Source: Escherichia coli O157:H7
Lineage (GTDB): Bacteria > Pseudomonadota > Gammaproteobacteria > Enterobacterales > Enterobacteriaceae
DNA length: 1,538 bases
Assembly (NCBI RefSeq): GCF_013167455.1
Contig: NZ_CP038329.1
Direction: 5' to 3' (one strand)
In this document: one piece after another, positions 1 to 1,538 of the stretch
How the letters are laid out: each line of letters starts with the position of its first letter
Position numbering within the stretch: position 1 is the first letter of the stretch
The notes under the pieces: model-generated
Databases searched by the model: none
What the model was told of the DNA's origin: nothing
What the model saw: only the letters and a program-made list of their open reading frames with translations
Position numbers and translations under genes: made by a program

Positions 1-1
1 A

Positions 2-457
2 CGACTGAAACAACTTTCAGATGAGGCAAAGAAAAACACCGAGGATCTCGAAGAAGCAAAGAAGAATTCAAGGTTTACACAGGTATCCCCAAAAGGTTGG
101 GAACGCGTTCGAGAGCTGCTGAAGGATAGCCAAGGCATATCAGCACTGAAGCTGTACTCATTTTTAGCGGAGCATATCGATCCTACGTGTGGCGCTGTCG
201 TTGCGGATCAGCAATTCCTAGCTGAAAAACTTGGAGTTAGCAGAAGCACAATTATTCGGTGGCTCAATTACTTAGAATCAAAAAATGCATTAGTTAGAAT
301 CCCCGTTGCTGGTAAGGTTTGTGCGTATGCCCTCGATCCACATGAAGTCTGGAAGGGATACAACACTACGAAAAACCATGCAGCGTTTGTCACTAAAACA
401 CTGGTCAACAAAGACGGTGATATTCAGCGCCGAATCATGGCCATGTTTTCAAATTGA
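2..457 (+). CDS. 3' portion (152 codons) of a putative plasmid replication protein, RepL-like winged helix-turn-helix; 5' end lies outside the window
   Basis: Frame 2 is open from position 2 to the TGA at 455-457 (translated by hand: ...SQGISALKLYSFLAEHIDPTCGAVVADQQFLAEKLGVSRSTIIRWLNYLESKNALVRIPVAGKVCAYALDPHEVWKGY...MAMFSN*). The segment LAEKLGVSRSTIIRWLNYLE is a typical HTH; the overall pattern (LKLY..FL...D...V.A...LA...GVS..TI...L..LE..N.LVR....G.....L(D/N)P(H/E)...(K/R)G) parallels staphylococcal pSN2 RepL as I remember it. It is missing from the supplied ORF track only because no start codon lies within the window. Product assignment is from memory, not a search. Confidence 0.6.
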   Translation, partial: RLKQLSDEAKKNTEDLEEAKKNSRFTQVSPKGWERVRELLKDSQGISALKLYSFLAEHIDPTCGAVVADQQFLAEKLGVSRSTIIRWLNYLESKNALVRIPVAGKVCAYALDPHEVWKGYNTTKNHAAFVTKTLVNKDGDIQRRIMAMFSN

Positions 458-1320: not shown

Positions 1321-1384
1321 GCCTAGAATAGATCTTTTACGCCGATTTGTAAGTTGTTGTTTTTTTAGTGTGTTTTTTGTTTAC

Positions 1385-1453
1385 CTGTCGCATCCAGGGT
1401 GACACAACGTTGTCGCATCCTGGATGCGACAACACGCAACAAGGTGTTGCACA
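1385..1453. promoter_or_regulatory. Operator-like cluster of palindromes upstream of the 1519 gene
   Basis: A 23-bp perfect palindrome at 1410-1432 (ttgtcgcatcc t ggatgcgacaa). A third copy of the arm in direct orientation at 1385-1398 (ctgtcgcatccagg). A 10-bp palindrome acaacgttgt at 1404-1413. A gcaac-N5-gttgc dyad at 1436-1450 overlapping a possible -35 hexamer. Confidence 0.45.
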
Positions 1454-1476
1454 GATGTGTCATGATGGCTTAGATT
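1447..1476 (+). promoter_or_regulatory. Candidate sigma70-type promoter (-35 ttgcac 1447-1452; -10 tagatt 1471-1476, 18-bp spacer) for the downstream gene
   Basis: Hexamer matches only (ttgcac vs TTGACA, tagatt vs TATAAT). An alternative -35 ttgaac at 1476-1481 lacks a good -10. Weak and unverified. Confidence 0.2.
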
Positions 1477-1518
1477 TGAACCAACGTTAGTGCATGGGAT
1501 TTTCAGAGGGAAAAAATC

Positions 1519-1538
1519 ATGTTTATTGATTCAGAAAA
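1519..1538 (+). CDS. 5' end of an unidentified protein-coding gene (MFIDSE...), continues beyond the window
   Basis: ATG at 1519-1521 preceded by a purine-rich Shine-Dalgarno-like agaggg (1505-1510) at 8-nt spacing. AT-rich upstream region with operator-like palindromes. Only 6 codons are visible, so the product cannot be assigned. Confidence 0.4.

Follow-up and report, generated by a model that had tools for sequence, protein, structure and literature searches.

The palindrome array near the end of the window (the whole 1,538-nt stretch of DNA that was analysed) is, with a probability that we put at roughly 85%, the RepA-binding core of a pKL1-type replicon, serving both the start of replication and the autorepression of repA. 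The window itself is a complete circular plasmid, a Col(MG828) minimal replicon of the pKL1 type, which encodes one protein, RepA. Here, we document its identity with pKL1, the anatomy of the array, its conservation across relatives, and the co-variation of its half-sites with the protein. A feature of this sort has already been described for pKL1, and the present one is ordinary, with nothing new in kind.

A megablast comparison with PLSDB returned 327 records in which at least 80% of the window is covered, the best matches being complete plasmids of 1538-1552 bp from E. coli, Shigella, and Klebsiella, with 98.6-99.9% identity. Many of the full-length matches are split in two pieces, indicating a circular molecule opened at another base. 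Both the near-identical NZ_CP053250.1 and pKL1 (NC_002145, 1549 bp) are typed as Col(MG828) and mobilizable and carry one annotated CDS each, and rep is the sole annotated gene in the sampled near-identical records that come with an annotation table. Circular alignment of the window to pKL1 yields 1470 identical positions in 1551 columns, the plasmid being about 96% identical, with nearly all differences confined to 460-1290 and the window 11 bases shorter, mostly from the oriT-like region. An orthologous RepA, a size of about 1.5 kb combined with nucleotide similarity, and tandem dyads preceded by AT-rich, IHF-box DNA upstream of repA together assign the plasmid to the pKL1 type.

When the end of the window is joined to its start, a single 158-aa open reading frame runs from an ATG at 1519 to a stop codon at 455-457, and the resulting RepA is identical to the protein translated from pKL1 NC_002145. 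The sequence-only reading had treated the regulator and the regulated gene as separate and unknown; the gene starting at 1519, a start that it had placed correctly, and the "RepL-like" gene ending at 457 are one and the same, repA. Its suggestion of a partition or toxin-antitoxin control gene falls away, given that the downstream gene is repA and that there is no second annotated gene; a toxin-antitoxin or partition operator was likewise rejected on the ground that rep is the only annotated gene in near-identical records. It had also set an autoregulated operator against iterons for the Rep-like protein. A protein-binding array at the promoter does exist, and both ideas point at RepA; because the gene at 1519 is the RepL-like gene, these are not two alternatives and collapse into one, namely RepA sites upstream of repA. 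The elements concerned, in the order in which they lie upstream of and within the gene, are as follows.

Positions 1321-1383, no strand: A+T-rich stretch, GC 0.32-0.38 against 0.52-0.68 on the flanks.
Positions 1350-1362, minus strand: IHF-like box AAACAACAACTTA, one mismatch to WATCAANNNNTTR, the sole IHF-consensus match of the plasmid.
Positions 1384-1408, no strand: unit 1, a degenerate 25-bp dyad with left arm TGTCGCATCC at 1386-1395, centre A at 1396, and right arm GGGTGACACA at 1397-1406.
Positions 1404-1413, no strand: junction palindrome ACAACGTTGT between unit 1 and unit 2, with an AACGTT core.
Positions 1409-1433, no strand: unit 2, a perfect 25-bp palindrome, GTTGTCGCATCC-T-GGATGCGACAAC, with 12-nt arms.
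Positions 1436-1450, no strand: small dyad GCAACA-agg-TGTTGC (GCAACAaggTGTTGC), with outward-facing half-sites one mismatch from TGTCGC and its right arm over the candidate -35.
Positions 1447-1476, plus strand: candidate repA promoter from a lax scan, -35 TTGCAC/TGCACA at 1447-1453 and -10 TAGATT at 1471-1476.
Positions 1456-1462, plus strand: TGTGTCA, a weak TGTNNCA-type half-site in the spacer of the candidate promoter.
Positions 1506-1510, plus strand: GAGGG, 8 nt before the repA ATG at 1519.
Positions 1519-1538, plus strand: start of repA, its first 20 bases, the frame crossing the record junction.
Positions 1-457, plus strand: remainder of repA with the stop codon at 455-457; the product is the 158-aa RepA, a predicted winged helix-turn-helix protein.

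The motif TGTCGCATCC occurs at 1386-1395 and 1411-1420 on the plus strand and at 1422-1431 on the minus strand, three copies where 0.11 would be expected, a count reached in 0 of 200 shuffles. A search of the rest of the window, repA included, with one mismatch allowed, found no further copy, so the motif is confined to the feature. The two direct copies and the inverted one reported by the sequence-only reading are therefore real, as are the shorter overlapping dyads at 1404-1413 and 1436-1450; the perfect palindrome is genuine too, but measures 25 rather than 23 bp, and the direct third arm is present but belongs to a second, degenerate dyad at 1384-1408. No 12-nt arm arose in 1000 dinucleotide-preserving shuffles of the plasmid, the longest reaching 11. 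Unit 1 is symmetric at 7 of 12 positions, and the two units, standing in tandem, are identical at 19 of 25 positions at period 25. Six of the nine TGTNNCA matches of the plasmid fall within 1386-1462, the chance expectation for the whole plasmid being 3.1.

Within a unit, the half-site cores lie approximately 14-15 bp apart, which is unusual for a simple helix-turn-helix dimer, the usual spacing for such dimers being 9-10 bp. The outward-facing pairs, GCGACA-N4-TGTCGC at the junction and GCAACA-N3-TGTTGC at the -35, do show this 9-10-bp spacing. Given these spacings, the true dimer site could be the junction rather than the unit. Unit 2 would be the highest-affinity RepA site, and the small dyad at 1436-1450 probably acts as the autorepression site. 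The AACGTT core itself occurs three times in the window, at 1406-1411, 1483-1488, and 493-498. Between the candidate -10 and the ribosome-binding site, the copy at 1483 forms part of 19 nt (1477-1495) with 74% identity to the unit junction (1400-1418).

On the far side of the dyads from repA, the IHF consensus is not significant in the window alone and becomes meaningful through conservation in relatives only: a match with at most one mismatch is found upstream of the dyads in 13 of the 14 sequences compared, five of them perfect. The stretch 1321-1383 thus probably represents the unwinding and bending region of the origin. On the gene-proximal side, a strict scan of 1250-1538 for sigma-70 promoters and terminators found nothing, and the candidate promoter, which the lax scan ranked first in the region, agrees with the sigma-70 consensus at 7-8 of 12 positions, a weak match and a prediction only; similarly placed candidates are present in the relatives L003, L004, L005, and L006, with the -35 at -59 to -82 and the -10 at -36 to -59. 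The sequence-only reading had the palindromes lying upstream of, and overlapping, the candidate promoter of the gene at 1519, which holds insofar as the small dyad overlaps the -35 of the lax scan, the strict scan being empty. Matches to the DnaA box with one mismatch number two, no more than chance would give (2.7 expected); one of them, TGTTGCACA at 1445-1453, falls on the small dyad and the -35. An RNA element was considered and rejected, Rfam giving only a chance miRNA-hairpin match over the palindromes, with 18.9 bits against a gathering score of 84.

Conservation in the close family follows the dyads. Compared with the window, both units of the 92%-identical relative L003 are 90% identical, unit 2 at 24 of 25 positions (96%), against 77% for the flanking AT-rich stretch and 73% for the promoter and 5' UTR. 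Of the five differences in the units, three restore the symmetry of unit 1 in L003, where its right arm is perfect, GGATGCGACA. The arms of unit 2 do not vary in any of eight pKL1-clade plasmids, in which only its central, symmetry-neutral base toggles between T and A; the same T/A alternation is seen at the centre of unit 1, whose right arm is polymorphic, reading GGGTGACACA, GGATGAAACA, or GGATGACACA. The small dyad is invariant in the same clade, and its inner CAACA/TGTTG arms are kept in L003. As for pKL1 of E. coli KL4, its RepA, Col(MG828) type, perfect palindrome, small dyad, candidate promoter, and 5' UTR are all the same as in the window, the feature differing by two substitutions only, both in the right arm of unit 1 (GGATGAAACA in pKL1 vs GGGTGACACA in the window).

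The 86-bp feature is present in 336 plasmid records, all but three typed as mobilizable, those listed being 1.4-2.2-kb pKL1-family plasmids, and in 294 of 5426 complete E. coli genomes, nearly always on plasmids. The family is thus a common one, and it includes pG-EA11 of the O104:H4 outbreak strain. The motif is thus no widespread repeat unrelated to the adjacent gene, an outcome that would have counted against a regulatory role in the sequence-only reading. One further record, NC_004833 (L020, pCR1, labelled Corynebacterium renale), belongs to the same family, its 86-bp feature being 100% identical and the plasmid 93.5% overall with 13 gap openings, and its rep reading frame is broken by frameshifts in the record; its host label or sequence quality looks doubtful.

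Beyond the close family, a tblastn search with RepA retrieved 586 plasmid records, with identities between 100% and about 25%, 328 of them at 99% or more. A comparison set of 14 sequences was assembled from the window, pKL1, and twelve diverged relatives with 42-92% RepA identity, from each of which the 260 bp before rep were extracted. Two tandem dyad units of 25-26 bp occupy the same place in nine of the 14 by computation, and L008 and L011 carry tandem 25-bp units by eye too; in L008, L011, and L014, automatic detection settled on another repeat instead of the dyad units. L009 and L010 display a different palindrome arrangement, in which automatic detection found no comparable tandem repeat. 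In the five tabulated lineages, the window, and pKL1, the tandem units end 43-117 bp ahead of the position that aligns with the first RepA residue. The half-sites themselves, all upstream of rep, vary from lineage to lineage.

L003: all four arms read TGTCGCATCC and together make a perfect palindrome of 46 bp.
L004 and L005: TAGCTCAC(G/A)CA.
L006: GGACAC.
L007: TGACA(C/T)CC.
L012: AGGAAACACA.

In all 14 plasmids, the 150 bp preceding rep hold the plasmid's own half-site core at a density at least 16 times that of the remaining sequence, a figure to be read with the proviso that the cores were picked from the same 150-bp region and that the independent evidence consists of the copies beyond the four arms only. 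Several of the 14 carry no copy of their core elsewhere, and extra half-site copies are found downstream of both units, in the promoter zone. Across the sequences compared, half-site and predicted recognition helix change in step, lineage by lineage: the window and L003 share both their half-sites and the predicted helix SRSTIIRW, L004 and L005 share theirs with SRSTIKRW, L009, L010, and L012 have (S/T)TRT(I/V)R(N/S)W and approximately shared half-sites, and relatives with differing predicted recognition helices have differing half-sites. This co-variation with the RepA lineage holds in non-mobilizable relatives too. Besides, AACGTT is found by eye between or beside the units in L003, L007, L008, L011, L013, and L014, despite their differing half-sites.

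The protein is itself consistent with such sites. In Pfam, RepA matches HTH_36 best (3.5e-8), with many weaker helix-turn-helix families besides, and its similarity to the RepL profile PF05732 (E = 4.3e-3, score 17.0, residues 52-131) is weak and below usual significance. An NCBIfam scan placed it in no family at the family's own cutoff, and a sequence-profile search of the PDB returned nothing below E = 0.46. An AlphaFold2 model built from 13 relatives, with a mean pLDDT of 69, that is, of moderate confidence, comprises a long N-terminal helix (residues 5-31) followed by a winged helix (residues 37-117), in which residues 88-100 are the predicted recognition helix. Foldseek searches of the PDB with this model retrieved dimeric winged-helix DNA binders only (among them HlyU/ArsR, CadC, TubR, and CodY), weakly, at E of about 3e-3 or worse. 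The modelled fold would fit a dimer reading dyad-symmetric sites, a fit rather than a proof.

Residues 118-158 of RepA (window 333-454) are the most conserved part across relatives of 42-92% identity, yet their pLDDT is below 50; these C-terminal 40 residues may be a region of oligomerisation or of interaction with a host factor. In four large plasmids of Proteus, Vibrio, and Arsenophonus (H126-H129, 100-330 kb), the matches are limited to the last 45-60 residues of RepA (about 80% identity), at places where no gene is annotated, and may be relics of integrated small plasmids.

For pKL1 itself, a 1999 study by Burian, Stuchlik, and Kay in J Mol Biol is reported to have located two regions bound by RepA ahead of repA and to have demonstrated autoregulation, and a 2003 paper by Burian et al. 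in Biochemistry is said to have found RepA hexamerisation to be concentration-dependent, distinguishing dimers from hexamers. In later articles, pKL1 is described as a selfish plasmid with repA only (PMC3526173), its oriV is said to precede rep and to contain an IHF box and Rep binding sites (PMC3832669), and a review classes it as having neither iterons nor antisense RNA and attributes to Burian 1999 a "Rep-only" copy control, in which excess Rep binds origin elements non-productively (PMC12361487). By analogy with pKL1, as conveyed at second hand by these articles, RepA would bind the array of the window, replication would require it, and RepA would repress its own promoter.

Upstream of repA, an AT-rich stretch with an IHF box, two tandem 25-bp boxes, and weaker half-sites on the -35 and spacer of the candidate promoter succeed one another, the two boxes presenting four TGTCGCATCC-type half-sites arranged > < > <, one of them degenerate. 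Combining the accounts of pKL1 with this anatomy, we propose that RepA dimers would fill the strong 25-bp boxes and that bound RepA, with IHF bending the DNA, would open the adjoining AT-rich stretch, allowing theta replication to start. As RepA accumulates and oligomerises, the weak sites at the promoter, GCAACA/TGTTGCA and TGTGTCA, would be filled, and promoter-proximal RepA would repress repA, setting copy number with neither iterons nor antisense RNA. Which sites would serve initiation and which repression, and with what stoichiometry, we infer from this arrangement.

A more specific version concerns the three successive dyads, which are centred near 1396, 1421, and 1443 at spacings of 25 and 22 bp, the third overlapping the -35. 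These might serve as the track of a single RepA hexamer made of three dimers, with dimers on the first two dyads firing the origin and completion of the hexamer on the third closing the promoter, or else the AACGTT junction might be the true dimer site; we offer either refinement tentatively and consider it unlikely.

The proposed RepA-binding core would share its logic with the iteron theta replicons pPS10, pSC101, F, and R6K, the initiators of which are of the Rep_3/RepA WH1-WH2 type: repeated initiator sites stand beside an AT-rich, IHF-bent region, and the initiator represses its own promoter via related, promoter-overlapping sites. These replicons, however, carry 3-7 direct iterons of 17-22 bp, whereas the window has two 25-bp units, each internally palindromic, and no further full copy of the unit within it, short of the three or more direct iterons of the classical definition. 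A Pfam search of RepA found no Rep_3 (WH1-WH2) domains, only matches of helix-turn-helix type, and the model has one winged helix. In this sense, the earlier notion of iterons for a RepL-like protein named the right protein but not the right architecture, which is that of two tandem 25-bp units with internal dyad symmetry.

With the RepL family (PF05732; Firmicute pSN2-type and phage P1 RepL), RepA shares the weak profile similarity over residues 52-131, and NCBI names relatives of 42-45% identity 'replication/maintenance protein RepL'; P1 RepL is longer by far than the RepA of the window, and the window's sites lie upstream of the gene, not within it. The plasmid pAES1 of Paracoccus aestuarii, the Rep of which is 46% identical to that of pKL1, is described as carrying inverted repeats in an analogous place upstream of rep, with direct repeats inside these inverted repeats, and as differing in having no nucleotide similarity in the origin region (PMC3832669).

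Could the dyads merely autorepress repA, with the origin located elsewhere, in the AT-rich stretch only or inside repA? Dyad symmetry is typical of operators rather than iterons, the half-sites overlap the candidate promoter, and RepA is weakly similar to RepL, whose origin is intragenic in phage P1, oriL lying inside repL. We nevertheless regard a purely operator role as improbable, since the strong, perfect sites stop 13 bp short of the -35 and border the AT-rich stretch with its IHF box, an origin-like layout, and no copy of the motif lies inside repA. The secondary literature moreover puts the oriV of pKL1 upstream of rep with Rep binding sites inside it (PMC3832669).

Far less probable is that the palindrome is the double-strand origin of a rolling-circle plasmid, forming a cruciform or hairpin that Rep would nick. 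The region folds well as single-stranded DNA (-23.9 kcal/mol, z = -4.8), and some Firmicute RepL plasmids of the pSN2 type are grouped with rolling-circle plasmids. Pfam, however, matches RepA to helix-turn-helix families only, neither Pfam nor NCBIfam gives a HUH, Rep_1, Rep_2, or Rep_trans domain, the predicted fold would be that of a winged-helix regulator, and the loop of the perfect hairpin is a single base. Nick sites are usually conserved, whereas the dyad sequences are wholly different between relatives.

Elsewhere in the plasmid, about 60 bp at 1229-1293 match approximately 2000 small ColE1-like mobilizable plasmids at 92-100% identity. We take this segment to resemble the bom/oriT nick region of pBR322/ColE1, a likeness that would explain the 'mobilizable' typing, and a 29-nt inverted partial copy of it is found 185 nt away, at 1047-1075. 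That the dyads serve a host or trans-acting protein with no link to RepA, such as a mobilisation accessory protein or a Xer-type system of multimer resolution, has the nearness of this oriT-like segment and the mobilizable typing in its favour and is the least credible of these three readings, the segment being common to about 2000 ColE1-like plasmids and the dyads not, the half-sites co-varying with the RepA lineage in non-mobilizable relatives included, and resemblance to a cer/XerCD core being absent by inspection.

Positions 1292-1320, which lie between the oriT-like segment and the AT-rich DNA, spell a hairpin, AAGGGCGTTGCG ttgcg CGCAACGCCCTT, whose 12-bp stem is perfect and whose loop has 5 nt; by eye, a hairpin is kept here through compensatory changes in L003 (AATAGTGTTGC/GCAACACTATT) and L004 (AAAGTGTT/AACACTTT). 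Read on the minus strand, the hairpin leads into TTTTGGGG, where relatives have a run of 4-6 T, and so it looks like a terminator for leftward transcription. Past the other end of the gene, 15 bp beyond the repA stop codon, an imperfect palindrome at 472-513, GACAATCA...TGATTGTC, with 24-nt arms that are 75% complementary, may be a terminator or another protein site.

Reading the array as the RepA-binding core of a pKL1-type replicon replaces an apparent pair of unknowns, regulator and gene, by the one gene that a complete minimal plasmid carries, and it illustrates the pitfall of reading a circular record as linear. The comparative result, in which tandem dyads of 25-26 bp carry lineage-specific half-sites that track the predicted recognition helix, adds modestly to what is known and is no discovery. 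By sequence, RepA finds no counterpart among solved structures that would explain its reported dimer/hexamer switch; the hexamer track, if true, would amount to a self-contained single-protein copy-number switch. The plasmid as a whole is a textbook-small case of copy control through one protein.
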